DNA of 64,000 bases from positions 99,217-163,216 of the forward strand of contig JBBQGQ010000005.1 of assembly GCA_038323195.1 (NCBI GenBank), read 5' to 3'. Below the pieces are notes generated by a model. That model did no database searches. It was not told the origin of the DNA and saw only the letters and a program-made list of their open reading frames with translations. Shown here one piece after another: positions 6,660-58,968 of the stretch. A program made the position numbers and the translations under genes. The stretch comes from Acidimicrobiia bacterium. Its GTDB lineage: Bacteria > Actinomycetota > Acidimicrobiia > IMCC26256 > PALSA-610. Positions within the stretch are counted from its first letter, which is position 1, and each line of letters begins with the position of its first letter.

Positions 6660-8040
6660 CTACGTCTAGATCGTGCGCCTATCGGTCGGTGAGGTTGACC
6701 TTGGATGGCTGCTGGGATGACGTGCTTCGAGCACTGAACCATTAGGACGCTGCTGGTCGCCTCGGGCTCAAGGATCCGACGACGAGGAGGTGCTGGTGAG
6801 GAAAGTGTTCGTTGGTCATGACTGGGCTGAAGTCCATCACGATGTGCATGTCGAGGGCGAGACCGGTCAACGTCTCGCCGCAAGGCGATTGCCGGAGGGC
6901 ATCGAAGGGGTGCGCCGGTTCCACGAGCTGGTCGCGACGTATGTGGATGAACCCGCGGATGTGACGGTCGCGACCGAGACCGACCGCGGGCTGTTCGTCG
7001 GCGCGCTGGTCGCGTCGGGTTATCGGGTATTGGCGGTGAACCCGATGTCGACGTCGCGTTATCGGGAACGGCACTCGAGTTCGGGTGCGAAATCTGATCC
7101 GGGTGACGCGAAAGTGTTGGCCGAGCTTGCCCGCCTCGATGGCCACAACCATCGACCGATCGCGGGTGACAGCGATCTCGCGGACGCGGTCAAGGTGCTC
7201 GCCCGTGCACATCACGCGATGATCTGGAGTCGGCAACGTCAAACCAACCAGCTTCGCTCGACCCTGCGCGAATTCTTCCCCGCCGCCCTTGGGGCATTTG
7301 ACGATCTCGCTTCTGGTGACGCACTCGCAGTGCTCGCAATCGCGCCGACACCAACCCAAGGCCGAGCACTGTCGCGATCGAAGATCGCATCCGCATTGCG
7401 GCGCGGGGGACGCCAACGACGTATCGAGGAACGCACGATCGAGATCCAGACCGCGCTGCGGTCTGAGCAACTCGAGGCCCCACCCGTCGTCGCCCAGGCG
7501 ATGGGCGCATCGGTCGCTGCGCTGGTCGCGGTGATCGCCGAGCTCGTCACCCAGACCGGCCGACTCGAAACCGGCCTGGCCGACCGTTTTGAACAGCACC
7601 CGGACGCCAAGATCATCCGTTCCCTGCCAGGACTGGGGATGATCCTCGGCGCCCGGGCGCTCGGCGAGTTCGGGGATGACCCGAACCGCTACCTGAACGC
7701 CAAGTCTCGCAAGAACTACGCCGGCACGTCACCCATCACCAGAGCCTCCGGCAAACAACGCGTCGTGCTCGCCCGCTACGCCCGCAACCGCCACCTCGCC
7801 GACACCTGCCGAATGTGGGCCTTCGCCACCATCACCAACAGCCCCGGAGCCAGAGCCTTCTACGACGAACGCCGCGCCAACGGCGACACCCACAACCGCG
7901 CACTCCGAGCACTCGCGAACCGGCTCGTCGGCATCCTCCACGGCTGCCTAGCCAACAACACCCTCTACGACGAACACATCGCCTGGGGACACAGAATCAC
8001 CCTCGCCGCTTGACACCCACGAACCCTGGGATGTCTAGAC
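6660..8040 (+). mobile_element. IS110-family insertion sequence (boundaries approximate)
   Basis: A single transposase ORF flanked by non-coding sequence, lying between a hydrolase gene and a regulator gene. GTCTAGA occurs at 6664-6670 and 8033-8039, and CTGGGATG at 6711-6718 and 8025-8032. No terminal inverted repeats seen, as is usual for IS110. Confidence 0.6.
6790..8013 (+). CDS. IS110 family transposase
   Basis: 407 aa. N-terminal DEDD-type domain (VFVGHDWAEVHHDV...ATETDRGL...) and C-terminal Transposase_20-type helix-hairpin-helix (IRSLPGLGMILGARALGEFGDDPNRY). Start may be the GTG at 6796. Confidence 0.9.
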   Translation: MLVRKVFVGHDWAEVHHDVHVEGETGQRLAARRLPEGIEGVRRFHELVATYVDEPADVTVATETDRGLFVGALVASGYRVLAVNPMSTSRYRERHSSSGAKSDPGDAKVLAELARLDGHNHRPIAGDSDLADAVKVLARAHHAMIWSRQRQTNQLRSTLREFFPAALGAFDDLASGDALAVLAIAPTPTQGRALSRSKIASALRRGGRQRRIEERTIEIQTALRSEQLEAPPVVAQAMGASVAALVAVIAELVTQTGRLETGLADRFEQHPDAKIIRSLPGLGMILGARALGEFGDDPNRYLNAKSRKNYAGTSPITRASGKQRVVLARYARNRHLADTCRMWAFATITNSPGARAFYDERRANGDTHNRALRALANRLVGILHGCLANNTLYDEHIAWGHRITLAA

Positions 8041-8393: not shown

Positions 8394-11381
8394 GTGCCCA
8401 CCCGCGTCTCGAGCTCCCGGTTCGTCGGACGCCGGGCCGAGCTGACTCGGCTCGAAGCGAGCTGGAAGGCAGCGGTCGTCGACGAGCGTGCGGCGACCGT
8501 GCTCCTGTCCGGCGAGGCGGGCGTCGGCAAGTCGCGGCTCGTGGCCGAGCTCGTCGCTCGTATTCCGGAGCCGTCGCTGGTGTTGTTCGGTCAATGCTTC
8601 GACCTCGTCGATCGCGCGATGCCATTCGGGCCGATCGTGCAGGTGATGCGCACGTTGCATCGCACGCTCGACGAGGCGACGCTCGAATCGGTCATCGGGC
8701 CGGGACGCGACGAGCTCGCGGTTCTGCTGCCCGCGCTCCACACGCCGGCGCGCGAGGGCATCGTCTCCGGCGCGCTGTTCGAGCAGCTGCTCGGCGCGTT
8801 CGAGCGGTTGGCCGAGCGCGTTCCCACCTTGCTGGTGCTCGAGGATCTGCACTGGGCCGATCGGTCGACACGCGAGCTGTTTGCGTATCTCGCTCGAAGT
8901 CTGCGCACGGCGTCGATGGTGCTGTTGGGAACGTATCGTTCCGACGATCTCCACCGGCGACATCCTTTGCGGGGTGTGCTGGCAGAGCTCGACCGCTCGG
9001 GCGCGGTCGAGCGGATCGAGCTTGCTCGCTTCGATCGTGACGAGGTGCGCGAGCTCATCTCGGCGATCGTCGGGAGCGAGCCGTCGACCGAGCTGGTCGA
9101 GCGGACGTATCGCCGCTCCGACGGCAACGCCTTCTTCGCCGAGGAGCTTCTCGCCGTCGACGCCACATACCACGCCACGTACCACGCGTCCATGCCATCG
9201 ACGTTGCGGGAGATCGTGCTCGCGCGCGTCGACGGGCTCTCCGAACCGGCGCAAAACGTGCTCCGTTGCGCGGCGGTCATCGGGCGTTCCGCCGATCACC
9301 GGCTCCTGGAGGCCGCGGCCGGCATTCCTCGCGAGGATCTGCTCGCCGGTCTGCGCGACGCGGTCGAGCACCAGATTCTCGTCACCGACGTCGACGGCCT
9401 GGAATACCGGTTTCGACACGCGCTCGTGCGCGAGGCCGTCGAGGACGACCTGTTACCCGGCGATCGCGTTGCATTGCACTCGCGCGTCGCGGAGGTGCTC
9501 GCCGAGCAACCGGTCTGGTTCGACGGGGGCGCGGCGCAGCTCCTGGCCGAGCTGGCCTGCCACTGGGACAGCGCACGCGATGCGCCGCGCGCGCTCGTCG
9601 CCGCGCTCGACGCCGCGCGCGCCGCCGAGCAGATCTATGCGTACGGCGATGCCCTCGACCACGCCGAACAGGTCCTCGCGTTGTGGGCGCAGGTTCCCGA
9701 CGCCGAGGATCGCACCGGCATGCGCCACGTCGACATGATGCGCTACGCGGCGACGCAGGCGGAGATGTCCGGGAGCACCGACCGAGCCCTCGACTACACC
9801 CGCTCGGCCATCGCTGAGATCGATCCCGTCGACGATCCGATCGTTGCCGGCCTGTTGCACGAGCGCTTCGGCCGGTACCTCTGGATGCTCGCGCGATCCT
9901 GGTCGGACATTCTCGAACATTGCCGCGAAGCCGTACGTCTCGTGCCGGTCGAGCCCAGCGCGGCGCGGGCGAAGGTGCTCGCCACCCTCGGCCAACAGTT
10001 GATGCTCGCGGGCCGCGACGACGAGGCCATGTCCGTCTGTGAGCAGGCGATCGCGGTGGCACAGGCGGTCGGTGAGCCGGTCATCGAGGGTCATGCGCAC
10101 AACTCCCTCGGAACGATCCTCGCCGGCATCGGGCGGTTGGACGAGGGACTCGCCGAGCTGCACCGCGCGCGAGCGCTCGCGCTCGAGACCGAGTCGTGGG
10201 CCGACGTCGCCCGCGCCGCGGTCAACGAGGGCGGCGCGCTCCAGACAACGGCCCGTGACGAGGAGGCGTTGGCGATCTCACTCGAAGGCGCCGAGATCGC
10301 GCGTGCCCACGGGCTCGACCGCGCCTTCGGCGCGTTCCTGCGGTTGAACGCAGTCGAGGCTCTTCGTGCGCTCGGCCGGTGGGACGAGGCCGACGAGCAA
10401 CTGCAGGAAGTCGAGAGTGTCGATCCGCTCGGCATCGACGCCTGGCGCCTCGCCGAGCACCGATGCCTGTTGGCGGTGGGGCGCGCGCAGTTCGAGACCG
10501 CGCGCGCCGAGGCGGCGCGGATGGAGCAGTTGGTCGGCCATGCGGGCGCAGTGCGCGACCACCTCGCGATCGAGCACGCGCACATTGCGATCGCGGGATG
10601 GAGCGGCGACGAGGCCGGGGCGTTCGAGCAGGCGCTCGCGGCCCTGCGCGAGCCGGTCGAGGATCTCCGGTTGTGCTCCGACGTCAGCGTCGAGGTCATC
10701 GTCGAAGGGCTCGCGGCCGGGGCGTCGGTCGCGGCGCGCACGCGGGAGCCCGAAGCTCGCGCCGAGTACCTGGAGCGCGTGCGCGAGCTGGGCGGCCAGC
10801 TCGACGACGGGGTAGCCGCCGATCGGTGGGGCGGCGGTCACCCCGGAGCCCTGGACGCGCTCCGCTGCCACATTGCCGCGGAGACCGCGCGCGCCGCTCG
10901 GAGTGACGACGGGCCGAGCTGGCTCGCGGTCGCCGAGATGTGGTCGGGCTACGCCATGCTCCCGCGTGAAGCGTACGCGCGCTTCCGCGCGACCGAGGCG
11001 TTCGTGCGCGACGACGACCGCGACGCCGCGGCGTCGAGCGCTCGTGATGCGTACGCGCTTGCCGCCGACATCGGCTGGATCTGTGTACGCGACGCGGTCG
11101 CAAGCCTGGCGCGCCGGGCGCGCCTTGATCTGGGCGCGGTCGCCAGTGCGGTGGCCTCGCCCGCGGATCGGTACGGTCTCACGGCCCGCGAGCTCGACGT
11201 CGTCGCGCTCGTGGCCGAGGGTCGCACGAATCGCCAGATCGCCGACGCGCTCTTCATCTCGGCCAAGACGGCGAGTGTGCACGTGTCGAACATCTTGGCC
11301 AAGCTCGGGGTGACCAATCGGGGCGAGGCGGCCGCCGCCGCCCGGCGTCTGGGTCTCGACCTCGGTGCCGCGGGCGCGTAG
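8394..11381 (+). CDS. large ATP-binding LuxR-family (LAL/MalT-like) transcriptional regulator
   Basis: P-loop GEAGVGKS near the N-terminus, a long helical/TPR-like middle and a C-terminal LuxR HTH (LTARELDVVALVAEGRTNRQIADALFISAKTASVHVSNILAKLGV). Start is uncertain (GTG 8307 or GTG 8394). Confidence 0.85.
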   Translation: MPTRVSSSRFVGRRAELTRLEASWKAAVVDERAATVLLSGEAGVGKSRLVAELVARIPEPSLVLFGQCFDLVDRAMPFGPIVQVMRTLHRTLDEATLESVIGPGRDELAVLLPALHTPAREGIVSGALFEQLLGAFERLAERVPTLLVLEDLHWADRSTRELFAYLARSLRTASMVLLGTYRSDDLHRRHPLRGVLAELDRSGAVERIELARFDRDEVRELISAIVGSEPSTELVERTYRRSDGNAFFAEELLAVDATYHATYHASMPSTLREIVLARVDGLSEPAQNVLRCAAVIGRSADHRLLEAAAGIPREDLLAGLRDAVEHQILVTDVDGLEYRFRHALVREAVEDDLLPGDRVALHSRVAEVLAEQPVWFDGGAAQLLAELACHWDSARDAPRALVAALDAARAAEQIYAYGDALDHAEQVLALWAQVPDAEDRTGMRHVDMMRYAATQAEMSGSTDRALDYTRSAIAEIDPVDDPIVAGLLHERFGRYLWMLARSWSDILEHCREAVRLVPVEPSAARAKVLATLGQQLMLAGRDDEAMSVCEQAIAVAQAVGEPVIEGHAHNSLGTILAGIGRLDEGLAELHRARALALETESWADVARAAVNEGGALQTTARDEEALAISLEGAEIARAHGLDRAFGAFLRLNAVEALRALGRWDEADEQLQEVESVDPLGIDAWRLAEHRCLLAVGRAQFETARAEAARMEQLVGHAGAVRDHLAIEHAHIAIAGWSGDEAGAFEQALAALREPVEDLRLCSDVSVEVIVEGLAAGASVAARTREPEARAEYLERVRELGGQLDDGVAADRWGGGHPGALDALRCHIAAETARAARSDDGPSWLAVAEMWSGYAMLPREAYARFRATEAFVRDDDRDAAASSARDAYALAADIGWICVRDAVASLARRARLDLGAVASAVASPADRYGLTARELDVVALVAEGRTNRQIADALFISAKTASVHVSNILAKLGVTNRGEAAAAARRLGLDLGAAGA

Positions 11382-39613: not shown

Positions 39614-39712
39614 CGTGTTTAGCCATTGGGGGGTTTACCCATTGGGCCTCCGCATTTGTCCTCATCCGGCTGGATCTTCTCATGCGCGAGCCGCTCGCTG
39701 CCGACCAAAGGT

Positions 39713-39741
39713 TTGACCGGTGCCGTCGACACTGCCAGACT
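39713..39741 (+). promoter_or_regulatory. candidate promoter of the leuA leader (TTGACC - 17 nt - CAGACT)
   Basis: The -35-like hexamer at 39713-39718 and the -10-like hexamer (A2, T6) at 39736-39741 lie 10 nt before the leader ATG, which would make the leader peptide (nearly) leaderless. Confidence 0.35.
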
Positions 39742-39751
39742 GGCGGGACTT

Positions 39752-39805
39752 ATGCGCAAGGAGACAACGGCTTTCGCAGCTCTGCTGGGCCTCCTCCTTA
39801 TATAG
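39752..39805 (+). promoter_or_regulatory. Leu-rich leader peptide ORF (MRKETTAFAALLGLLLI) of a leuA attenuator
   Basis: ATG CGC AAG GAG ACA ACG GCT TTC GCA GCT CTG CTG GGC CTC CTC CTT ATA TAG. Five Leu codons fall in the last eight positions. It is followed by a hairpin, a terminator and then leuA. Confidence 0.7.
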
Positions 39806-39835
39806 GCGCGGGCGCCCACCGGTGCTCGCGCTCGA

Positions 39836-39866
39836 CCCTCCGTGCCGACCCGGCCGGGGGGTTTTT
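39836..39866 (+). terminator. intrinsic terminator of the leuA attenuator
   Basis: CCCTCCGTGCCG-ACC-CGGCCGGGGGG forms about 11 bp (one bulged T, one G-U pair) and is followed by TTTTT (39862-39866), about 105 nt upstream of the leuA ATG. Confidence 0.65.
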
Positions 39867-39972
39867 CGTTGCATAACGGTGCGGTGAACGGAGCCGACGG
39901 CGGAGTGAGCTCGCCAGCGAGCGAACGACAGCGGGACGGGTATCCCGGCCCGCAGAGAGTGAGCGAACAAAG

Positions 39973-41514
39973 ATGGACATGGTCAGGATCTTCGACACGA
40001 CCCTGCGTGACGGCGAGCAATCGCCCGGGATCTCGCTCGACGTCACCGAGAAGCTCGAGATCGCCGACCAGCTCGCACGCCTCGGGGTCGACGTGATCGA
40101 AGCGGGCTTCCCGATCGCGTCCGACGGCGATTTCGAGTCGGTCGAGGCCATCGCCAAGGTGGTGAAGGGGCCGATCATCACCGCCTTGTCGCGTACCGGC
40201 TTCAAGGACGTCGACCGGGCGTGGGAGGCGGTGCGGCACGCCGAGAGGCCCCGCATCCACGTGTTCATCGCGACGTCGAAGATCCACATGGAGAAGAAGC
40301 TCCGCATGACCCCGGAGCAGGTGAAGCACGAGGCCGAGGTGGCGGTGGCGCGCGCCAAGGGTTACGTGGACGACGTCGAGTTCTCGCCCGAGGACGGGTA
40401 CCGCTCCGATCCCGACTTCATGTGCGAGGTGTGCCAGATCGCGGTCGACAACGGCGCGACGACGCTCAACATCCCCGACACCGTCGGCTTCGCGGTGCCG
40501 GACGACTACGGCCGGCTGATCAAGCTCGTCATCGACACCGTGAAGGGCGATTTCGTCGTGTCGACGCACTGCCACAACGATCTCGGCCTTGCAGTCGCGA
40601 ACTCGCTCGCCGGCGTCGCGAACGGCGCCCGCCAGGTCGAGTGCGCGATCAACGGGCTCGGCGAGCGTGCCGGCAACGCCGCGCTCGAAGAGGTCGTGAT
40701 GGCGATCCGCACTCGGCGCGATTACTTCCACACGGTCGACGTGAACGTCCGCACGGAAGAGTTGGCCCGAACCTCGCGCATGGTCGCGCGGCTCACCGGC
40801 TACCACGTGCAGTACAACAAGGCGGTCGTCGGCCGCAACGCGTTCGCGCACGAGGCCGGCATCCACCAGCACGGCGTGTTGGCCGACCGGGAGACCTACG
40901 AGATCATCGACGCGTCGACGGTGGGTCAGGAGGCCGCCCAGATCGTGCTCGGCAAGCACTCGGGTCGCCACGCGTTCGCCGACACGCTCGAGAAGATGGG
41001 AATCCATGTTCAGGGCGACGCGCTGAACAGTGCGTTCGTGCGCTTCAAGGAGCTCGCCGACAAGAAGGTCGAGATCACCGACGCCGACCTCGAGGCGATC
41101 ATCGCCGAGGAGCTCGGCAGTGGCATGGTGCACCGTTACGGCTTGCACGAGCTCGAGGTGCGCGGTGGTACGAGCATTCCGCCGGTCGCCCGCGTCGTGC
41201 TGACCGATGCGGACGGCAAGATCGAGGCGACCGGCACCGGAGACGGCATGATCGACGCCGCGATCGCCGCGATCGGAACGGCGACGGGGGTGCAGGGAAA
41301 GCTCGGCAACTTCCAGGTGTCGTCGGTGACGGGCGGCGCCGACGCGCTCGGTGCGGTCGCGGTGACGGTCGACGCGGAAGGGCGCAAGGTGACGGGTCGC
41401 GGTGTCGCGACCGACGTCGTGGAGGCCTCCGCGCGTGCGTATCTCAACGCCGTGAACAAGCTCGTCCGCATGCGCGGCCGCGGCGAGGTCGACGTGTCCA
41501 CGGTCGGACCGTGA
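39973..41514 (+). CDS. leuA: 2-isopropylmalate synthase
   Basis: 513 aa. [29 protein letters not shown] and a C-terminal LeuA dimerisation/regulatory domain. Confidence 0.95.
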
Positions 41515-45196: not shown

Positions 45197-45697
45197 GTGA
45201 ACGTCGAGGTCGTCCGATGGCCAGCTGACGCGCAGCGGCTGGCCGAGCTTCGGGAGATGCGCATTCCGCGGCTGTTGGTGGTGGCCGACGGCGACGGTGA
45301 GCTGCCGTTGCCGGTCGACTGTCTCGAGGACTGGGTGACGTCGGGCGCGCCCGAATGGGAGGTCGACGCCCGCCGGCGCGCCCTCCTGCTTCGGTCCGGA
45401 CAGCACGCGGTGCGGCCGCTGCTCGACGAGGACGGTCTGCTCCATCACCGCGACGCCTGGGTATCGCTCTCACCGGTCGAGCAGGCGCTCGCCGCGGTGT
45501 TGCTCGATCGCTTCGGCGCGGTCGTCACCCGCGAGATGCTCGCCGATCGCGCGTGGCCGGCCGGTGTGCCGACGCGCAACGCGCTCGACGTGCATGTGCT
45601 GCGCCTGCGCCGCCGCATCGCCCCCGTGGGTCTCGAGATCCGCACGGTCCGCTCACGCGGCTATCTCATGCAATCGCGCGAAGTCGTGCTGCAGTAG
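45197..45697 (+). CDS. OmpR/PhoB-type winged-helix DNA-binding protein with short atypical N-terminal domain
   Basis: C-terminal trans_reg_C-like region (LSPVEQALAAVLLDRFGAVVTREMLADRAW...LDVHVLRLRRRIAPVGLEIRTVRSRGYLM). The N-terminal ~75 aa is too short for a full receiver domain. Confidence 0.75.
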   Translation: MNVEVVRWPADAQRLAELREMRIPRLLVVADGDGELPLPVDCLEDWVTSGAPEWEVDARRRALLLRSGQHAVRPLLDEDGLLHHRDAWVSLSPVEQALAAVLLDRFGAVVTREMLADRAWPAGVPTRNALDVHVLRLRRRIAPVGLEIRTVRSRGYLMQSREVVLQ

Positions 45698-45738
45698 CTC
45701 ACCTCTTCCCTCGGAGGGTCCCGAGTAGCGTCGCGCGT

Positions 45739-47511
45739 GTGCGACTCGGGATCGACAGCGGCGGCACGTTCACCGACGTCGTCGCCGGCGACGGCCGGGT
45801 CGCCAAGGTCGCGTCGACGCCCGACGATCCCGCCCGCGCGGTGGAGCGCGCGGCCGACGCCGTCGGGGAGCGAGGCCGGATCGACGTGCTCGCGCACGGC
45901 ACGACGGTGGCCACCAACGCGCTCCTCGAGCGGCGGGGTGCCCGCGTCGCGCTGATCTCGACGCGCGGCTTCGTCGACGAGATCGAGATCGCGCGCCAGG
46001 TCCGGCCGTCGCTGTACGACCCGTTCGCCGATCGGCCGCCGCCGCTCGTGGGGCGCGACATGCGGTTCGAGGTCGCCGGCCGGCTCGACGCGCGCGGCGT
46101 GGAGATCGAGGCCTTCGACGGGACGCTGCCCGAGATCGCAGGCGCGGTCGACGCAATCGCGGTCTGTTTGCTGCATGCCGACCTCGACCCGCGACACGAG
46201 CGCGAGGTCGGCGACGCGCTGCGCGCGGTGCGGTCGGAGCTCGTCGTGTGCTCGCACGAGGTCAGCCCGGAGTTCCGCGAGTACGAACGCATGGTCACGA
46301 CGGTCGTGGAGGCGTTCCTCGAGCCGGTCTGCACGCCGTATCTGACACAGCTCGCGTCCATGGCACCCGAAGCGCTGGTGATGACCTCGGCCGGCGGCCT
46401 CGTACCCGTGGCCGCCGGCGCGCGGCTCGCCGCGTCGTTGTTGCTCTCGGGCCCCGCCGGCGGTGTACGGGCGGCGGCGGAGATCGCCGCCGCGTGCGGA
46501 TTCGTCGACGCGGTCAGCTTCGACATGGGTGGGACGAGCACCGATGTTTGTCTCGTGCGCGGGCGCGTTCCCGAACCGGCGTCGGAACGCGTCGTCGCCG
46601 GGTTCCCGATCCGGCTGCCGGCGCTCGACGTGCACACCGTGGGCGCGGGCGGCGGTTCGATCGCGCGCGTCGACGCGGGCGGCGCGTTGGCCGTCGGGCC
46701 GCGGAGCGCGGGAGCGGTCCCGGGACCCGCGTGCTACGGGCGCGGCGGTGCGGAGTCGACGGTCACCGACGCGGATCTGGTGCTCGGCCGGATCCCCGCC
46801 GACTCCGTCTTCCCCGATCTCGGCCGCCTCGACGTCGCCGCGGCGCGGCGCGCGCTTGAGCGAGCCGGCGTGACCGCCGAGGGCGTCGTGCGCGTCGTCG
46901 ACGCCGCAATGGAACGCGCGGTACGGGTCGTGACCGTCGAGCGTGGTGTCGATCCGCGTGAGCTCGCGCTCGTCGCGTTCGGAGGTGCCGGACCCATGCA
47001 TGCGTGTGCGATCGCCGAAGCGTTGGGCATGCGCGCAGTGGTGGTGCCCCCGCGCGCCGGCGTGTGCTCCGCCGCCGGCCTGCTGTGCGCGCCGAAGTCG
47101 CGCGAGGTAGTGCACAGCCTCGGCCGCGCGTCACTGGCCGACGCGCTCACCCGGGTCGAACGCGAGGCGCGGGCACGCGCCGGCGCCGGCGCGATCGTCG
47201 AGACGGCGGTCGATTGTCGCTACGCCGGCCAGAGTCACGAGCTGACCGTGGCGTCCCCCGACGACTTCCCGGCCGAGCACCAGCGCCGCAACGGACACGC
47301 GCGCCCGGGCGCGCCGATCGAGGTGATCGCGGTTCGCGCCCGAGCGTCGATCCCGGCGCCGCTGCGCATCACCGACCTGCCCGACGTCGAACGGTCCCGA
47401 GTGGTCGGGCCGGCGGTCGTCGCCGAGCCCGACTGCACGATGTGGGTTCCCGAAGGTTGGCAGGCCGAGCCCCGCGAGCTCGGGGCCTGGGTCGTCAGAC
47501 GGCGGAGATAG
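45739..47511 (+). CDS. hyuA: hydantoinase/oxoprolinase family protein, A subunit
   Basis: GTG at 45739 (VRLGIDSGGTFTDVV...). The ASKHA-fold hydantoinase_A pattern is present. The ORF upstream of this start overlaps the preceding gene. Confidence 0.85.
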   Translation: MRLGIDSGGTFTDVVAGDGRVAKVASTPDDPARAVERAADAVGERGRIDVLAHGTTVATNALLERRGARVALISTRGFVDEIEIARQVRPSLYDPFADRPPPLVGRDMRFEVAGRLDARGVEIEAFDGTLPEIAGAVDAIAVCLLHADLDPRHEREVGDALRAVRSELVVCSHEVSPEFREYERMVTTVVEAFLEPVCTPYLTQLASMAPEALVMTSAGGLVPVAAGARLAASLLLSGPAGGVRAAAEIAAACGFVDAVSFDMGGTSTDVCLVRGRVPEPASERVVAGFPIRLPALDVHTVGAGGGSIARVDAGGALAVGPRSAGAVPGPACYGRGGAESTVTDADLVLGRIPADSVFPDLGRLDVAAARRALERAGVTAEGVVRVVDAAMERAVRVVTVERGVDPRELALVAFGGAGPMHACAIAEALGMRAVVVPPRAGVCSAAGLLCAPKSREVVHSLGRASLADALTRVEREARARAGAGAIVETAVDCRYAGQSHELTVASPDDFPAEHQRRNGHARPGAPIEVIAVRARASIPAPLRITDLPDVERSRVVGPAVVAEPDCTMWVPEGWQAEPRELGAWVVRRRR

Positions 47512-47513
47512 CG

Positions 47514-49058
47514 GTGGACCCGGCGACGTTGCAGGTGTGGATCTCGCGACTCGCGGGCATCGCCGACGAGATGGGCGCGGTGCTACGCCGGGCCGCGTAC
47601 AGCCCCAACATCAAAGAGCGCGCCGACTGCTCGTGTGCGTTGTTCGCGCCCGACGGCACCCTGTTGGCCCAAGCCGAGCACATCCCCGTGCATCTCGGTT
47701 CCATGCCGGCGGCCGTGCGCGCCGCGATCGACGCGTGCGGTGACCGGATCGCGCCCGGTGATCAGGTCGTCGTGAACGACCCGTTCGCCGGAGGTACGCA
47801 TCTGAACGACGTCACGTTCGTCGCGCCCGCGTTCGCCGACGACGGGACCCTGCTCGGTTGGGCCGCGAACCGCGCACACCACGCCGACGTCGGTGGGATG
47901 GCGCCCGGATCGTTGCCGCCCGACGCGACGGAGATCTATCAGGAGGGACTGCGCATCCCGCCCGTCCGCTGGACACCCGAGGTCGAGGCGCTCGTCGTCG
48001 CCGCGTCGCGCACGCCCGACGAACGACGCGGCGATCTCGACGCGCAGCTGGGCGCGAACCACTTGGGCGTGGCCAGGCTGCGCGAGCTCCCGGTCGCGCC
48101 TGAGATCATGATCGAGATCGTCGAATACGGAGAGCGCCGCACTCGTGCCGCGATCCACGAGCTTGCCGACGGCACGTTTCGCTTCGTTGACGTCCTCGAC
48201 TCGACCGGCGGCCCCGGCGACGCGCGACCGGCGCGGATCTGTGTGGCGGTCACCGTGCTCGGCGACACCATCACATTCGACTTCGCGGGTACCGACCCGC
48301 AACGAGCCGGATCGGTGAACGCGGTGGAAGCCGTGACGATCAGCGCGGTCGTGTTCGCGTTGCGATCCGTCGCCGATCCCGATCTCCCGGCGAACGGTGG
48401 CGTGCTGCGGCCGTTGCGCGTGCTCACACCCGCCGGCTCGGTGGTCTCGGCCCGGATGCCGGTGGCGGTCGGTGCCGGCAACGTCGAGGTGAGTCAACGG
48501 GTTGCCGACGTGTGCCTGGGCGCCCTCGCGCAAGCCGCGCCGGAGCGCGTCGGCGGTGCGTCGCAGGGAACGATGAACAACGTGCTCGTGGGCGGCGAGG
48601 GTTGGGTGTACTACGAGACGATCGGCGGCGGCCAGGGCGGGCGGCCGAACGGGCGAGCGGGAATGAACGGCGTGCACACCGCGATGACCAACACGCGCGA
48701 CACGCCGGTCGAAGCGCTCGAGCGCGCGTACCCCATGCGGGTACGGCGCTACGCGTTGCGGACGAACAGCGGCGGGGCCGGCTTCGCCGCGGGCGGTGAC
48801 GGCATCGTCCGCGAGCTCGAGATGCTCGACGACGCGACCGTCTCGCTCATCACCGAACGGCGATCGTCTCGCCCATGGGGCATCGCGGGTGGCGAGCCGG
48901 GCGCGGTCGGCGAGAACTGGTTGCTTCCCGGCGGCGACGAGACGCGAGCCCGCCGGCTCGCCGACAAGTGCACGACTCGGCTGCGACGCGGCGACGTCGT
49001 GCGGATCCTGACGCCGGGTGGCGGCGGCTTCGGCCCGCCGACACCACCTCGAGGCTGA
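47514..49058 (+). CDS. hyuB: hydantoinase B/oxoprolinase family protein
   Basis: GTG at 47514, 2 nt after the hyuA stop. RAAYSPNIKERADCSCALF...NDPFAGGTHLNDV is typical of hydantoinase_B. Confidence 0.85.
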   Translation: MDPATLQVWISRLAGIADEMGAVLRRAAYSPNIKERADCSCALFAPDGTLLAQAEHIPVHLGSMPAAVRAAIDACGDRIAPGDQVVVNDPFAGGTHLNDVTFVAPAFADDGTLLGWAANRAHHADVGGMAPGSLPPDATEIYQEGLRIPPVRWTPEVEALVVAASRTPDERRGDLDAQLGANHLGVARLRELPVAPEIMIEIVEYGERRTRAAIHELADGTFRFVDVLDSTGGPGDARPARICVAVTVLGDTITFDFAGTDPQRAGSVNAVEAVTISAVVFALRSVADPDLPANGGVLRPLRVLTPAGSVVSARMPVAVGAGNVEVSQRVADVCLGALAQAAPERVGGASQGTMNNVLVGGEGWVYYETIGGGQGGRPNGRAGMNGVHTAMTNTRDTPVEALERAYPMRVRRYALRTNSGGAGFAAGGDGIVRELEMLDDATVSLITERRSSRPWGIAGGEPGAVGENWLLPGGDETRARRLADKCTTRLRRGDVVRILTPGGGGFGPPTPPRG

Positions 49059-49094: not shown

Positions 49095-49568
49095 TTAGTC
49101 GGGGAGCCGTACCGCGACGACGGTCACCGACATCTCGCGTTTCGGACCTTGGTACGTGACGGTGGCCTCGGGTCCTTTGCCGATGATGGCCTGCCCGAGG
49201 GGTGAGTTGGTCGACAGCACGTCGTACTTCTCGTGGCGTTCCTCGATGGAGCCGACGAGATACGTGACGAGGTCGTCGTCGCCGGCGTAGCGCAGGTCGA
49301 CGAGTGTGCCCGGCTCCACCACGTCGCCGGCGGTGTTGGTGTCGATCACGACCGCGTTCTTCAGCATCTGCTCGAGCTGGCGGACCCGGGCCTCGTTGTG
49401 GCCCTGCTCGTTCTTCGCGGCGTCGTAGTCGGCGTTCTCGGAGATGTCGCCGTGCTCTCGGGCTCTTTCGATCCAAAGCGAGAGCTCGCGACGGCGCGTC
49501 GTCGTCCGTTCTTCCAATTCCGCCTTCAGGCGTGCGTGGGCCTGCGGCGAGAGGTGGGGCTCGCTCAT
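49095..49568 (-). CDS. greA: transcription elongation factor GreA
   Basis: 157 aa with a coiled-coil N-terminal region (DISENADYDAAKNEQ) and the GreA C-terminal domain. Confidence 0.95.
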   Translation of the reverse strand: MSEPHLSPQAHARLKAELEERTTTRRRELSLWIERAREHGDISENADYDAAKNEQGHNEARVRQLEQMLKNAVVIDTNTAGDVVEPGTLVDLRYAGDDDLVTYLVGSIEERHEKYDVLSTNSPLGQAIIGKGPEATVTYQGPKREMSVTVVAVRLPD

Positions 49569-49668
49569 GACCGGCAGGGTACTTCGGTCGCCCGGCCGAA
49601 TCCGTCGACAGGGGCACTTTTCGGCGCACGGTGTCGACCTCCGAGGTCACCGGGGACCGCGGTGTCGT

Positions 49669-49697
49669 TTGACAATGTTGTGATCTGCTGCGATCCT
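49669..49697 (+). promoter_or_regulatory. candidate promoter of the leuB-operon leader (TTGACA - 17 nt - GATCCT)
   Basis: Perfect -35 hexamer at 49669-49674 and a -10-like hexamer at 49692-49697, 9 nt before the leader ATG. The geometry is the same as at the leuA leader. Confidence 0.4.
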
Positions 49698-49706
49698 GGT
49701 CGTCTC

Positions 49707-49742
49707 ATGTCCGTGCATCTCTCAGTCGTCGTCATTCGATAA
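49707..49742 (+). promoter_or_regulatory. Val/Ile/Leu-rich leader peptide ORF (MSVHLSVVVIR) of an attenuator
   Basis: ATG TCC GTG CAT CTC TCA GTC GTC GTC ATT CGA TAA. It is followed at once by a perfect 9-bp hairpin (49743-49765) and a terminator, then leuB. Confidence 0.7.
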
Positions 49743-49770
49743 GCGAACGCCGCACCGGCGTTCGCTGCAA

Positions 49771-49798
49771 CCGTCCACCTCCGCGTGGGCGGTTTTTT
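49771..49798 (+). terminator. intrinsic terminator of the leuB-operon attenuator
   Basis: CCGTCCAC-CTCCGC-GTGGGCGG forms 8 bp (one G-U pair) and is followed by TTTTTT (49793-49798), 34 nt upstream of the leuB GTG. Confidence 0.7.
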
Positions 49799-49831
49799 CG
49801 TGAACGCACCTGATCGGAAAGGAAACAGCCC

Positions 49832-50824
49832 GTGGCCCATCGGGTCGGGATCATCGGCGGCGACGGCATCGGCCCCGAAGTCGTGCACGAAGCGTTGAAG
49901 GTCGTGCGCGCCGCGGGCGTCGAGCTCGACCCGATCGAATACGACCTCGGCGGACGTCGCTATCTTGCGACCGGCGAGGTGTTGCCCGACGCCGTGCTCG
50001 AGGAGTTGCGCGGCCTCGACGCGATCTTGCTCGGCGCGGTCGGGACACCCGACGTTCCGCCGGGCGTGCTCGAGCGAGGTCTGCTGCTGAAGATGCGCTT
50101 CGCGCTCGACCTCTACGTGAACCTGCGGCCGTTCAAGGCCGGTCCCGGACGCCACAACGAGGGTGTCGATTTCGTCGTGGTGCGCGAGAACACCGAAGGA
50201 ACGTACGCGGGCGAGGGTGGTTTCCTGCGCAGGGGCACACCGCACGAGGTCGCGACCCAAGGCTCGGTGAACACGCGCATGGGCGTAGAACGTTGCGTGC
50301 GTTTCGCGTTCGACCTCGCCCGATCTCGCGACCGTAAGCATCTCACGCTCGTGCACAAGACGAACGTGCTCACCTTCGCCGGCGACCTCTGGCAACGCAC
50401 GTTCGACGACGTGGCCCGCTCGTTCACCGACGTCGGCACCGCGTACAACCACGTCGACGCGGCGTGCATCTATTTCGTACAGGACCCGCAGCGCTACGAC
50501 GTGGTCGTCACCGACAACCTGTTCGGAGACATCCTTACCGACCTCGGCGGCGCGATCGGCGGCGGTATCGGGCGGGCTGCGTCGGCGAACCTCAACCCCG
50601 ACCGGACCGGCCCATCGCTCTTCGAGCCGGTCCACGGATCGGCTCCCGACATCGCCGGCACCGGGCAGGCCGACCCCCGGGCTGCGGTGATCTCGGCCGC
50701 GCTGATGTGTGATTTCCTCGGTGAGAGCGATGCTCTGGCCCGAATCCAAAAGGCACTGGACACGACGGACGATGTAAAAGGCACGACTTCACAGATCGGC
50801 GACGCGATCGCCGCCGCCTGCTGA
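49832..50824 (+). CDS. leuB: 3-isopropylmalate dehydrogenase
   Basis: GTG start preceded by [20 protein letters not shown] and the NLFGDILTD motif. Confidence 0.95.
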
Positions 50825-50851
50825 CGACGCAGCTCGACGAAAGGCTCTGCG

Positions 50852-51766
50852 ATGCCCATCACCCCGACCGACAAGATCTGGATGAACGGCGAGCTCGTTC
50901 CGTGGGCGGACGCGCGGATCCACGTCCTCACGCACACGTTGCACTACGGCACCGGAGTCTTCGAGGGCATCCGCGCGTACGAGACGGAACGGGGCCCGGC
51001 GGTCTTCCGCCTCACCGAGCACATCACGCGGTTGTTCGACTCCGCGCGGATCATGATGATGGAGATCCCGTACACCGTCGACCAGCTCGTACAGGCGACG
51101 AAGGACACCGTGCGCGCGACCGGACTCGCGTCGTGCTACGTCCGGCCGATCGCGTACTACGGGTACGGCGAGATGGGCCTCAACACGTTGCCGTGTGAGG
51201 TGGACGTCTCGATCGCGTGTTGGCCGTGGGGCGCGTACCTCGGTGCGGACGCCGTCTCCAAGGGCGTGCGCATGAAGATCTCGAGCTGGACGCGCCACGA
51301 CCACAACACGATGCCGCCCCTGTCGAAGACGACCGGCAACTACGTCAACTCGTCGCTCGCGAAGGTCGAAGCGCTCAAAGCGGGATACGACGAGGCGATC
51401 ATGCTCAATCCGGATGGCCTCGTCTCCGAGTGCACCGGTGAGAACATCTTCGCCGCGCGTCGCGGTGTGCTGGTCACGCCGCCGGTCTCCGCCGGCGCGC
51501 TGCCGGGCATCACCCAGGATTCGGTGACGACGATTGCCCGCGACCACGGCTTCGAGGTCCGCGTCGACGACTTGTCGCGCAGCGATCTCTACGTCGCCGA
51601 AGAGATGTTCGTGTGCGGCACTGCGGCCGAGGTCAGCGCCGTGAACTCCGTCGACGACCGCGCCATCCCGTGCCCCGGTCCGATGACCCAAGTCATCGCC
51701 GCCGAGTACGCCAAAGCCGTCCGCGGCGAGATCGACAAATACAAAGACTGGTGCGAATTGGTATGA
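50852..51766 (+). CDS. ilvE: branched-chain amino acid aminotransferase (class IV)
   Basis: 304 aa. HTLHYGTGVFEGIRAY and the rest of the fold-type IV pattern. Confidence 0.95.
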   Translation: MPITPTDKIWMNGELVPWADARIHVLTHTLHYGTGVFEGIRAYETERGPAVFRLTEHITRLFDSARIMMMEIPYTVDQLVQATKDTVRATGLASCYVRPIAYYGYGEMGLNTLPCEVDVSIACWPWGAYLGADAVSKGVRMKISSWTRHDHNTMPPLSKTTGNYVNSSLAKVEALKAGYDEAIMLNPDGLVSECTGENIFAARRGVLVTPPVSAGALPGITQDSVTTIARDHGFEVRVDDLSRSDLYVAEEMFVCGTAAEVSAVNSVDDRAIPCPGPMTQVIAAEYAKAVRGEIDKYKDWCELV

Positions 51767-53481
51767 GTGAGTCTGGAAGTGGCGGAGTCCCGAGCGCCCG
51801 CGAGGTGGGTATCCCGCCGAGCAGCGAGGGCGACAAAGCAAGCATCGTGGGTATCCCGCCGAGCAGCGAGGGCGACAAAGCAAGTATCGAAATTTACGAC
51901 ACGACGTTGCGGGATGGCTCGCAGCTCGAGGGGATCTCGCTGACCGTCGAGGACAAGCTGCGGATCGCGGAGCAACTCGACTGGCTCGGTGTGCACTACA
52001 TCGAAGCCGGTTGGCCGGGCGCGAACCCGAAGGACGACGAGCTGTTCCGGCGCGTGCCGAACGAGCTGAGGCTCGAGACCAGCACCCTCGTCGCGTTCGG
52101 GTCGACGCGTCGAGTCAAGGGCAAGGTCGACAGCGACGACACACTCCGCCACCTCGTCGAGGCGAATGTCGGGACCGTCTGCATCGTGGGCAAGTCTTGG
52201 GACTACCACGTCACCGAGGCACTGGGCACGACGCTCGACGAGGGTGTGGCGATGGTCGGCGATTCGGTCGAATTCCTGCGCGGCGCCGGGATGCAGGTGC
52301 TCTTCGACGCCGAGCACTTCTTCGACGGCTTCAAGCGCAATCCCGAGTTCTCGCTGCGCGTGCTCGAAGCCGCGGCGACGAACGGCGCGAGCCATCTCGT
52401 GCTCTGCGACACCAACGGCGGAGCGCTGCCACGCGAGGTCGAGCAGGCCGTGGCAGATGTCGTGCGTTACTTCGGTGCCGACGTCAAGATCGCGGTGCAT
52501 CTCCACGACGATGCCGGCACTGGAGTTGCGAACGCGCTCGCGGGGGTACTCGGGGGCGCCACACAGGTCCAGGGCACGATCAACGGTTACGGCGAGCGCA
52601 CGGGCAACTGCAATCTCACCACGATCATCCCGAATCTCACGCTCAAGATGGGCTACGAGACCATCCCGCTCGATCGCTTCGAGCGGCTCACTCCGGTTGC
52701 GCACCACATCGCCGAGCTTGTGAACATGCCCCTCAACCCGCAGGCCGCGTACGTGGGCCATTCCGCGTTCGCGCACAAGGCCGGGTTGCACACGAGCGCG
52801 ATCGCGAAGCGTCCCGACGCCTACGAGCACGTATCGCCCGAGGTCGTCGGGAACGGGACGCGGTTCGTGGTATCGGAGCTCGCGGGCAAGTCGACGCTCG
52901 GGCTCAAGGCCAAGGAGCTCGGCCTCGAGCTCGACGGACCGCAGCTGGCCGACGTGGTCGAGACGTTGAAGCGGCTCGAGCACGAGGGCTACCACTTCGA
53001 GGTTGCCGACGGCTCGTTGGAGTTGCTCATGCGCCGGGCAACGGGTTGGGAGCCCGGCTGGTTCCGAGTCGAGTCGTTCCGCGTGATCACCGACGACCTC
53101 GGCGGCGTCGACACCCTTACCGACAAGACCGGCGCGACCGTGATGACCGAAGCAACCGTCAAGGTCCACATTGGTGGTAGGCGAGTGGTGGCGACCGCCG
53201 AGGGCAACGGTCCGGTGAACGCGCTCGACACCGCGCTGCGAACCGCACTCGACGGCAATTTCCCCGCGCTCGAGCGAGTGCACCTGACCGACTACAAGGT
53301 GCGGGTGCTCGACACGAACAAGGGCACGGGCGCGGCGACTCGGGTGCTGATCGACTCCACCGACGGCAACGGCACGTGGACGACCATCGGCGTGAACGAG
53401 AACATCATCGAAGCCTCGTGGCAGGCGCTGCTCGACTCGATTCATTTCGGCCTGCTGCGCGCCGAGCTCGCCGGCGGCTGA
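51763..53481 (+). CDS. cimA: citramalate synthase-like LeuA paralogue
   Basis: ATG at 51763 in an ATGA overlap with the ilvE stop; alternative GTG starts lie at 51805 and 51847. IYDTTLRDGSQ, HLHDDAGTGVANALAGV and a C-terminal LeuA_dimer-type domain. From memory the layout resembles the TIGR00977 citramalate synthase class; the substrate is not proven. Confidence 0.8.
   Translation: MSESGSGGVPSAREVGIPPSSEGDKASIVGIPPSSEGDKASIEIYDTTLRDGSQLEGISLTVEDKLRIAEQLDWLGVHYIEAGWPGANPKDDELFRRVPNELRLETSTLVAFGSTRRVKGKVDSDDTLRHLVEANVGTVCIVGKSWDYHVTEALGTTLDEGVAMVGDSVEFLRGAGMQVLFDAEHFFDGFKRNPEFSLRVLEAAATNGASHLVLCDTNGGALPREVEQAVADVVRYFGADVKIAVHLHDDAGTGVANALAGVLGGATQVQGTINGYGERTGNCNLTTIIPNLTLKMGYETIPLDRFERLTPVAHHIAELVNMPLNPQAAYVGHSAFAHKAGLHTSAIAKRPDAYEHVSPEVVGNGTRFVVSELAGKSTLGLKAKELGLELDGPQLADVVETLKRLEHEGYHFEVADGSLELLMRRATGWEPGWFRVESFRVITDDLGGVDTLTDKTGATVMTEATVKVHIGGRRVVATAEGNGPVNALDTALRTALDGNFPALERVHLTDYKVRVLDTNKGTGAATRVLIDSTDGNGTWTTIGVNENIIEASWQALLDSIHFGLLRAELAGG
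51805..51888. repeat. 42-bp in-frame tandem duplication (41/42) in the 5' end of the cimA-like gene
   Basis: Copies at 51805-51846 and 51847-51888, each beginning with GTG. They encode VGIPPSSEGDKASI twice, directly before the conserved IYDTTLRDG core. Confidence 0.95.
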
Positions 53482-58089: not shown

Positions 58090-58820
58090 GACGGTGGATC
58101 AAGATCTCGCTGCGCATCGCGATCGGTCTGTTCGTCGTCGTCTTCGCGTATCTGTCGGTCGTGTTCGTACAGGTGTGGTTGGCTGCGCGCCGAGATGACG
58201 CCCGACCGTCCGACGCGATCATCGTCCTCGGAGCCGCGGAGTTCGACGGCCGGGCGTCGGCGATTCTCGCGGCCCGGCTCGACCATGCGATCGACCTGTA
58301 CCGCCGCGGCATCGCCCCGGTCGTCGTGGTGACGGGCGGCAGACAACCCGGAGATCGCTTCACCGAGGCGAGCGTCGGTGCGAGCTACCTGAACGATCGT
58401 CACGTCCCCGAGCGCGCGATCTTGCGCGAGACGACCGGGCGTTCGTCGTGGCAGTCGCTCGCCGCGGCGGCCCGCTTCTTGAAGGCGCGCAACCTCACAC
58501 GAGTCGTGCTCGTCTCGGATCCGTACCATTCGGCGCGCATCGAGGACGTTGCGCACGACGTCGGTCTGAAAGCCGTGACATCGCCCACCCGCACGAGTCC
58601 GATCAAGGGGACAAGTGAGTGGCGGCGATTCGTCACCGAAACGATCCGCGTCGGCGCGGGACGGATCTTCGGTTACGGACGCCTCGACCGGCACCGCCAG
58701 GTGGAGAGGCTCGTTCCCGGACTCGCTACAATATGCCCTTCGTTGCGGCGGCCGGATCGGCGATTCGGTCGACGGCGATGCGGTCGACGTCGCAACGGCA
58801 CCCATTCGGGGGTGGTGTAA
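58086..58820 (+). CDS. DUF218/YdcF (SanA/ElyC-like) membrane-anchored protein
   Basis: GTG in a GTGA overlap with the gltX stop. N-terminal TM helix, then AIIVLGAAEFDG...VVVTGG...VLVSDPYHSARI. The last ~45 codons are Arg-rich and the stop lies 15 nt inside tRNA-Gln, so the 3' part may be fortuitous. Confidence 0.75.
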   Translation: MRRWIKISLRIAIGLFVVVFAYLSVVFVQVWLAARRDDARPSDAIIVLGAAEFDGRASAILAARLDHAIDLYRRGIAPVVVVTGGRQPGDRFTEASVGASYLNDRHVPERAILRETTGRSSWQSLAAAARFLKARNLTRVVLVSDPYHSARIEDVAHDVGLKAVTSPTRTSPIKGTSEWRRFVTETIRVGAGRIFGYGRLDRHRQVERLVPGLATICPSLRRPDRRFGRRRCGRRRNGTHSGVV

Positions 58821-58877
58821 TCGGCAACACGACAGGTTCTGGCCCTGTTATTGGGGGTTCGAGTCCTCCCCCCCGAG
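58806..58877 (+). tRNA. tRNA-Gln (anticodon CTG)
   Basis: Hand-folded cloverleaf: acceptor TCGGGGG/CCCCCGA, D stem GTGT/ACAC, anticodon stem ACAGG/CCTGT with loop TTCTGGC, T stem GGGGG/CCTCC with loop TTCGAGT. No encoded CCA. Confidence 0.9.
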
Positions 58878-58892
58878 CGCAGCCGGAGACTT

Positions 58893-58968
58893 GCCCCGTT
58901 CGTCTAGCGGCCCAGGACGCCAGGTTCTCATCCTGGTAACACGGGTTCAAATCCCGTACGGGGTGCCA
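58893..58968 (+). tRNA. tRNA-Glu (anticodon CTC)
   Basis: Hand-folded cloverleaf: acceptor GCCCCGT/ACGGGGT, D stem GTCT/GGAC, anticodon stem CCAGG/CCTGG with loop TTCTCAT, T stem ACGGG/CCCGT with loop TTCAAAT. Encoded CCA. Confidence 0.9.

Follow-up and report, generated by a model that had tools for sequence, protein, structure and literature searches.

A conserved isoleucine-codon leader element before leuB-ilvE-cimA and cimA in Acidimicrobiia: a putative attenuator without an antiterminator fold

In a survey of actinobacterial ilvB genes (Seliverstov et al. 2005, PMC1262725), a short open reading frame (ORF) with a run of isoleucine, valine or leucine codons was found together with a terminator and no obvious antiterminator, and the mechanism was left open; the survey covers neither Acidimicrobiia nor any example before leuB or cimA. 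For ilvB1NC of Mycobacterium tuberculosis, an attenuator model has been proposed (Nat Microbiol 2026, PMC13236596) in which the antiterminator is masked by a ribosome that has reached the stop codon but can form while one is stalled at the codons for LVVI. In the literature that we searched, no cimA or leuB leader peptide and no attenuation in Acidimicrobiia is described. Here we analyze a leader element upstream of leuB-ilvE-cimA in a 64,000-nucleotide stretch of DNA from an Acidimicrobiia bacterium (GenBank assembly GCA_038323195.1, contig JBBQGQ010000005.1; the whole stretch is called the window below). Judged by its sequence and conservation, the element is probably an isoleucine- and valine-sensing attenuator.

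Sequence reading, RNAfold and terminator calling placed the promoter hexamers, the ORF, a 9-bp hairpin and the terminator at the coordinates given for them in the original prediction, a short note made from the DNA letters. All features lie on the forward strand unless stated. The -35 hexamer TTGACA (49669–49674), kept as TTGAC(A/T) in the close relatives L002–L006, L008 and L010, is followed after 17 nt by a -10-like hexamer GATCCT (49692–49697; nANNNT) that lies 9 nt before the leader ATG. A generic sigma-70 promoter scan of the window did not call GATCCT, and the comparative placement of the -10 box given below was used instead. The leader ORF (49707–49742) has 11 codons, a predicted translation of MSVHLSVVVIR, an ATG at 49707 and a TAA stop at 49740–49742; its four regulatory codons, GTC GTC GTC ATT (Val-Val-Val-Ile, 49725–49736), are followed by a spacer codon, CGA, and the stop. 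A hairpin, H1 (49742–49766), starts on the final base of the stop codon and has a perfect 9-bp core, GCGAACGCC-GCACC-GGCGTTCGC (49743–49765), which flanking A-U and G-C pairs bring to 11 bp in RNAfold. After a GC spacer (49767–49768) comes the intrinsic terminator, T (49769–49798), a 10-bp stem, AACCGTCCAC-CTCCGC-GTGGGCGGTT (49769–49778/49785–49794), with a U tract (T6, 49793–49798), so that 26 nt lie between the end of the ORF at 49742 and the left arm of T at 49769. The leuB ribosome-binding region GGAAAGGA and GTG start span 49816–49834, the GTG standing at 49832, which is 33 nt, not 34 nt, past the T run. The operon (49832–53481; NCBIfam assignments) comprises leuB (49832–50824; NF002898, 496 bits), a class I ilvE (50852–51766; TIGR01122) and the citramalate synthase gene cimA (start near 51805/51847, end 53481; TIGR00977, 658 bits). 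Like the actinobacterial ilvB elements of Seliverstov et al., the locus has a short ORF with an Ile/Val run upstream of a BCAA (branched-chain amino acid) gene, a U-tract terminator and no clear antiterminator; unlike those elements, in which the ORF overlaps the terminator hairpin, the ORF here stops 26 nt short of T and directly adjoins H1, a separate hairpin that covaries.

To place the element among relatives, we searched with the LeuB protein and kept one genome per species, which yielded 80 loci (LeuB identity 70–96%), all of them from metagenome-assembled genomes of Acidimicrobiia or unclassified Actinomycetota. A script detected a mini-ORF, a stop-codon hairpin and a terminator in 48 of the 80, and with the window's own copy this gives the 49 leaders to which the counts below refer; a covariance model, R1, and the underlying alignment, A1, were made from 45 leuB-type leaders only. 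The comparative alignment proposed with the original prediction shows that the mini-ORF is kept in relatives, both in the 49 leaders and in eight cimA-type leaders described below. Its C terminus follows the pattern [I/V][I/V][I/V]-Ile-X-stop: isoleucine stands at position -2 from the stop in 47 of 49 leaders (ATT in 33, ATC in 14), valine or isoleucine fills positions -3, -4 and -5 in 44–45, and any residue is tolerated at -1 (P, R, S, V, G and others). The ORF varies in length (9–26 codons) and in its N terminus around this constant C terminus, and conservation in the ORF part of the alignment has a period of 3 nt, T standing at codon position 2, as expected under codon-level selection. ATT at the last regulatory position in 33 of the 47 Ile leaders compares with 4% of Ile codons in the genes of the 64-kb window, which served as the reference for codon rarity; the rare Val codon GTA is over-used in the leaders too. 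The original prediction spoke of a Val/Ile-type leader, and of that claim the attenuator-like leader with BCAA codons stands but the amino acid needs correction. The main sensed residue would be isoleucine, with valine secondary, because isoleucine holds position -2 in 47 of 49 leaders and the versions that precede cimA only are purely isoleucine. The stop codon is TAG in 34 of 49 leaders and a UAG-C stop context is frequent; as a conjecture, this context might prolong the stay of the ribosome at the stop.

A NANNNT hexamer lies 6–10 nt before an in-frame leader start in 48 of 49 leaders (7.2 expected) and a TANNNT hexamer does so in 27 of 49 (0.2 expected), and there is no Shine-Dalgarno sequence before the leader ORF. 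The lack of a Shine-Dalgarno sequence and the start immediately past the -10 box argue that the mRNA from which the leader ORF is translated is probably leaderless or nearly so, with a predicted 5′ UTR (untranslated region) of ~0–3 nt in the window. Leaderless mRNAs are common in Actinomycetota, and the ilvB leader peptide of Corynebacterium glutamicum was reportedly found by Morbach et al. in 2000 to be translated without a ribosome-binding site.

H1 carries the marks of structural selection. Across 45 relatives, compensatory changes affect 9 of 11 pairs of H1, and 93% of its alignment cells are paired, compared with 33–48% when the partners are slid as a control. The H1 stem is 9–12 bp long in 47 of 49 leaders (range 6–14) with a mean ΔG of -19.1 kcal/mol. 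T (mean ΔG -17.8 kcal/mol) mostly has a 10–11-bp stem, usually with a 4-nt and often UUCG-like loop, and is followed by a U tract; its core CCGUCC/GGGCGG is almost invariant, with the U·G wobble kept in 39 of 45. The spacing of these parts is fixed on one side and free on the other: in each of the 49 leaders, H1 has its first paired base -4 to +1 nt from where the stop codon ends and is separated from T by a spacer of 1–6 nt, whereas anything from 18 to 121 nt may lie between T and the leuB start. The two hairpins have no nucleotide in common, and in free RNA they fold together. The single-sequence fold z-score of the window leader is modest (-2.6).

The element resembles the M. tuberculosis ilvB1NC attenuator, as that is described (PMC13236596), in its Actinomycetota host, its short BCAA-rich upstream ORF and its Rho-independent terminator with a U tract; under the helicase position assumed below, its post-stop hairpin would also be free with the ribosome at the regulatory codons and masked with the ribosome at the stop. 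It differs in that hairpin and terminator, described as mutually exclusive in M. tuberculosis, lie 1–6 nt apart here and co-fold, and in that its target is leuB-ilvE-cimA or cimA rather than ilvB.

The distribution of the element points to cimA. R1 finds it upstream of leuB in 53 of the 80 loci, and in a further eight loci that have no leuB leader the R1 element lies directly upstream of a detached cimA (L054, L037, L049, L025, L021, L064, L061 and L035), where the leader peptides end in pure isoleucine runs such as IIIIC, IIIIR and GIIIP before the stop. The whole arrangement thus recurs in 61 of 80 related genomes, and this recurrence, together with the base-pair covariation, places it beyond chance. 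Where the leader precedes leuB, 42 of the 48 leader-bearing genome loci continue with leuB-ilvE-cimA in this order; of the remaining six, five are truncated by the end of their contig and one, L067, has leuB-cimA without ilvE. The element tracks cimA, the isoleucine-specific step, as is seen from its position before cimA when that gene is detached from leuB and from the Ile-only runs found there. The link to the citramalate route and to isoleucine that had been guessed for the window is in this respect stronger than was supposed.

The Ilumatobacter-like genomes without a leuB leader show a different arrangement at leuB. In L017, L030, L035, L061, L077 and similar loci, a conserved CTCTAGATT is followed ~7–8 nt later by the leuB ATG, and this closeness suggests a leaderless leuB mRNA in these genomes. 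Several of them have an Ile leader before a detached cimA instead.

The same design serves other BCAA genes. Ten kilobases upstream of the leuB leader, the window contains a leuA leader of the same geometry (39752–39866), with an LLL-X-stop peptide end: its ORF, MRKETTAFAALLGLLLI followed by the stop, occupies 39752–39805, H1 39805–39832, a 1-nt spacer 39833, and T 39834–39863 plus the U tract, with the G of the TAG stop as the first base of H1. R1, although built from leuB-type leaders only, matches this leader at 39776–39873 (33.7 bits, E = 1.7e-8). A metagenome scan with the LeuA protein returned 55 distinct leuA leaders of the same design (LLL-X-stop, H1, T), in which the stop-H1 offset is -2 to +2 and the H1-T spacer 1–5 nt; the few exceptions to this spacing (L094, L146) are apparently script artefacts. 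R1 recognizes 44 of the 55 at E < 1e-3, and in the alignment of R1 matches, almost wholly of leuA type, there is covariation in 7 of 11 pairs of H1 and 7 of 9 pairs of T. These matches bear out, and extend to relatives, the prediction that the two leaders of the window share an architecture but differ in amino-acid specificity. In both families a rare codon ending in U stands last in the regulatory run, ATT for Ile (49734–49736 in the window) and almost always CTT for Leu (39797–39799), each making up ~4% of its own synonymous set in the window genes, which could reflect either slow wobble decoding or a nucleotide-level constraint. A third type of leader, in L078 (3160–3255, reverse strand; R1 32.3 bits), has the same stop-hairpin-terminator design and a peptide ending in IVRVLIT before the stop, with a mix of Ile, Val and Leu codons; it sits upstream of an ilvB-like ORF (MAERLTGAQALVRS...). 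Elsewhere in the window, R1 gives a weak partial match at 10456–10508 (reverse strand; 14.6 bits, E = 0.019) that covers only the hairpin and terminator part with several pairs broken and is probably an unrelated GC-rich tandem hairpin.

Given this architecture, we looked for the alternative fold on which classical attenuation depends. When the ribosome was placed at each of the last five codons of eight representative leaders, the pair probability of T stayed at 0.93–0.98 under every mask. RNAalifold with the right arm of T masked returned H1 only, and with the left arm of H1 masked as well it returned no helix. The best alternative fold of the H1 right arm with the T left arm averages -6.19 kcal/mol, compared with -6.14 kcal/mol when the H1 right arm is shuffled (p = 0.9, n = 57, cimA type included), and in the cimA-type leaders the H1 right arm has no complementarity to the T left arm. 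There is no antiterminator RNA fold in the window or its relatives: masked folding, nascent-RNA folding, the RNAalifold masks and the shuffle control together rule out a classical 2:3 antiterminator. Of the original prediction, a leader-peptide attenuator-like element therefore stands, and the classical mechanism that it implied does not. Two other pairings were tried and rejected. A duplex of the codon run with the T right arm, suggested by the CUCCUC/GGAGG likeness in leuA leaders, reaches -6.05 kcal/mol against -6.54 kcal/mol in shuffles, and an extension of H1 and T through GTTCGC (49760–49765) with GTGAAC (49800–49805) could form in the window, is not conserved in close relatives and is put down to chance. 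No Rfam family, Leu_leader, Thr_leader, His_leader and Trp_leader included, reaches its gathering score at either leader of the window, and matches at E up to 10 in 49500–49900 and 39700–39990 are weak and unrelated; the Rfam scans of the leader, an element of only ~95 nt, contain no T-box riboswitch match. The element thus fails the antiterminator test that defines classical attenuators, yet by our model it would work like a ribosome-mediated attenuator.

Ribosome reach suggests how this could be. Published biochemistry puts the ribosomal helicase at +11 from the P site, and we took this to mean 11 nt past the first base in the P site. Under this assumption, a ribosome with codons -5 to -2 in the A site opens a median of 0–1 bp of H1, one at the spacer codon opens 4 bp, and one at the stop opens a median of 7 of ~11 bp. 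Stalls at -5 to -3 are thus out of reach of H1, and because all four codons are nonetheless conserved, the read-through state should be the one with H1 intact. On balance we favor, with some reserve, an isoleucine-sensing and secondarily valine-sensing, ribosome-mediated transcription attenuator of leuB-ilvE-cimA in which H1 takes the following part. Transcription would start a few bases before the leader ATG, and a 70S ribosome would translate the 11-codon ORF. When Ile-tRNA or Val-tRNA is scarce, the ribosome would wait at one of the four regulatory codons and H1 would stay folded; folded H1, with or without the bulk of the ribosome, would keep T from completing in the RNA polymerase exit channel, and polymerase would read through. 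With the amino acids in good supply, the ribosome would move two codons on to the stop, melt ~70% or more of H1 and free ~20–25 nt of slack, upon which T could fold and transcription end at ~49798. The starved and the fed leader would then differ only in the state of H1 as polymerase reaches the U tract: folded with a ribosome waiting at its foot, or melted by a terminating ribosome. The geometry asked of polymerase is that a terminator stem, once complete, must have its base deep inside the RNA exit channel while H1 is held 1–6 nt from the base of T. H1, which is placed where a classical pause hairpin would be, may double as a pause hairpin that synchronizes polymerase with the ribosome. The part assigned to H1, that of a non-overlapping, steric antiterminator, is a tentative model to which we give somewhat less than even weight, and we are doubtful that the mechanism is new in kind in that sense. 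Wider still, and rather unlikely on present evidence, is the idea that Acidimicrobiia use a distinct class of attenuator for leuA, ilvB, leuB and cimA, with an antiterminator that has no sequence in common with the terminator; in such a class, a collapsible hairpin between stop and terminator would turn a two-codon shift of the ribosome into ~20–25 nt of RNA slack, and T would be permitted or forbidden not by competing base pairs but sterically, either at the RNA exit channel or where ribosome and polymerase meet.

Several points weigh against this account of the element. Its support is comparative and thermodynamic, and every relative is a metagenome-assembled genome. No experimental case in which two non-overlapping hairpins exclude each other sterically is known to us. 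Since H1 and T co-fold in free RNA, the exclusion would rest wholly on the geometry of polymerase and ribosome. If H1 alone blocks T, an untranslated leader should read through, which is the opposite of classical super-attenuation. The calculation of reach is also sensitive to the footprint: with one 4 nt longer, a stall at -2 opens ~5 bp of H1. Finally, mutation of the regulatory codons in the Streptomyces coelicolor ilvB leader is reported to have left regulation unaffected (PMC1262725), and hence actinobacterial leader peptides without clear antiterminators can mislead.

Other explanations start from the same parts. H1 could be a helper of termination that stacks on T or shields it from flanking RNA, so that a stalled ribosome, by disturbing H1, would lower termination; coaxial stacking would fit the 1–6-nt spacing equally, and the longer footprint just mentioned would bring a stall at -2 into H1, but three of the four conserved codons lie too far upstream to touch H1, and T is strong on its own (10–11 bp, often a UUCG-type loop, a U tract) with nothing for H1 to guard it from. 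We regard this as unlikely. The stalled 70S might instead act by shielding the leaderless 5′ end from decay, as in ermC, or by a NusG bridge to polymerase, with T a fixed partial terminator. Because the leader ORF starts at or near the 5′ end, a ribosome stalled at codons 7–10 would bury that end; the strict abutment of stop and H1, the short H1-T spacer and the structural selection on H1 would all go unexplained, however, and such action of the ribosome seems to us quite unlikely. Classical three-hairpin attenuation, in which a stalled ribosome would cover H1 on its left arm and so leave the right arm to pair with the left arm of T as a 2:3 antiterminator, has in its favor the order of ORF, hairpin and terminator, which is that of the trp, leu and ilv leaders, and the RNAfold result that with the H1 left arm masked and the T right arm unmade, at least 4 nt of the T left arm are paired in 39 of 49 leaders. 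These pairings are weak, however (mean -6.2 kcal/mol against -17.8 for T), and equal to those of shuffles (-6.1, p = 0.9), they have no conserved register in RNAalifold, the probability of T is at least 0.93 under every mask, the cimA-type H1 right arm is not complementary to the T left arm, and stalls at codons -5 to -3 never reach H1, all of which makes this explanation improbable.

The remaining two depart further from the observations. A hungry-codon frameshift or stop read-through, in which a ribosome starved of Ile would slip on the Ile/Val codons, miss the stop and go on translating across H1 and T, so that it blocks the terminator, could draw on the +1 and -1 frames, which are open past the terminator in 45–47 of 49 leaders, and on H1, which stands about as far off as structures that stimulate frameshifting typically do. 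GC-rich stems can be expected to leave such frames open, however, and these are hence uninformative; there is no conserved slippery heptamer, the run differs in its nucleotides (GTC, ATC, GTA, ATT), and the Leu version would need another slip, so that slippage is very improbable. Nor do we give appreciable credence to an element that senses no amino acid, with a fortuitous mini-ORF and with H1 and T as tandem terminators or as a 3′ stabilizer of an upstream transcript. The single-sequence z-score of only -2.6 would suit such an element, but greA (49095–49568, reverse strand) is divergent from the leuB operon, so that there is no upstream transcript to terminate, and a promoter lies directly before the ORF; the codon pattern, kept in the 49 and the eight leaders with an amino acid that switches with the downstream gene, contradicts it.

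The element can be set beside further known systems. With the enterobacterial trpL, leuL, ilvL/ivbL, hisL and thrL leaders, the element shares a leader peptide, tandem regulatory codons that include rare ones, and an intrinsic terminator before the first gene; it differs in having no 2:3 antiterminator, no overlapping alternative helices, a leader ORF that is probably leaderless, and no Rfam match. In Escherichia coli pyrBI and pyrE, the proximity of the ribosome to the terminator decides the outcome with no RNA alternative, the signal being the pausing of polymerase at low UTP, and the leader ORF runs into the terminator or ends within ~10 nt of it. The element is similar in that it has no antiterminator and in that the closeness of the ribosome to the terminator would be decisive; it is different in that the ORF ends 26 nt upstream of T, in that the ribosome would be near T only if H1 is folded, and in that the signal would be charged tRNA. 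Mycobacterial leaderless polycysteine small ORFs (sORFs) act on translation, their codon run pairing with a downstream Shine-Dalgarno sequence (Canestrari et al., bioRxiv 10.1101/834739). These too are short, leaderless actinobacterial ORFs with an end-product codon run near the 3′ end and a controlled operon downstream, but the element has a U-tract terminator 18–121 nt from the gene start and no pairing to a Shine-Dalgarno sequence. A literature search for terminator-only attenuators returned nothing specific.

Acidimicrobiia are a large and mostly uncultured class of actinobacteria, and the element appears to be a conserved signal in them for regulating isoleucine synthesis by the citramalate route. 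Since the leader tracks cimA and reads isoleucine codons, it could help annotators to tell cimA from its leuA paralogues and, in metagenome-assembled genomes, to predict regulons. At least two families of cis-regulatory RNA that are not yet catalogued emerge, the leuB/cimA type and the leuA type, along with the single ilvB-type example in L078, and these are captured in alignments A1 and A2 and the model R1. The 20-year-old puzzle of actinobacterial leader peptides that have terminators and no antiterminators is sharpened by this, because comparative depth shows the antiterminator to be truly absent and the geometry to be conserved: a codon run, one spacer codon, a stop abutting a hairpin and a spacer of 1–6 nt. 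This geometry makes a non-classical, position-sensing mechanism directly testable.

The gene calls of the original prediction for greA, leuB, ilvE, the citramalate synthase and leuA agree with the family matches, the leuA gene (39973–41514) being of the short bacterial type. At the ilvE-cimA junction, 51805–51889 is a 42-bp tandem duplication (2.0 copies, 97% identical) in frame with cimA, and as a result the true cimA start is uncertain (GTG 51805, GTG 51847 or later). The core of the duplication, GGGTATCCCGSC, recurs at 39938–39949, 25 nt upstream of the leuA ATG, and has five matches in the window where 0.8 would be expected; either a small repeat element or a signal common to both LeuA-family genes could account for it. 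Between leuA and greA, two large genes on the forward strand (45355–49058) resemble the alpha and beta subunits of caprolactamase/acetophenone carboxylase (hydantoinase type), both scoring far under the family cut-offs. Farther away, 7623–7704 on the reverse strand matches the actinobacterial small RNA Ms_AS-4 in Rfam (84 bits, over the gathering score), and a pair of adjoining tRNA genes lies at 58806–58965 on the forward strand (Rfam tRNA, ~58 bits each).

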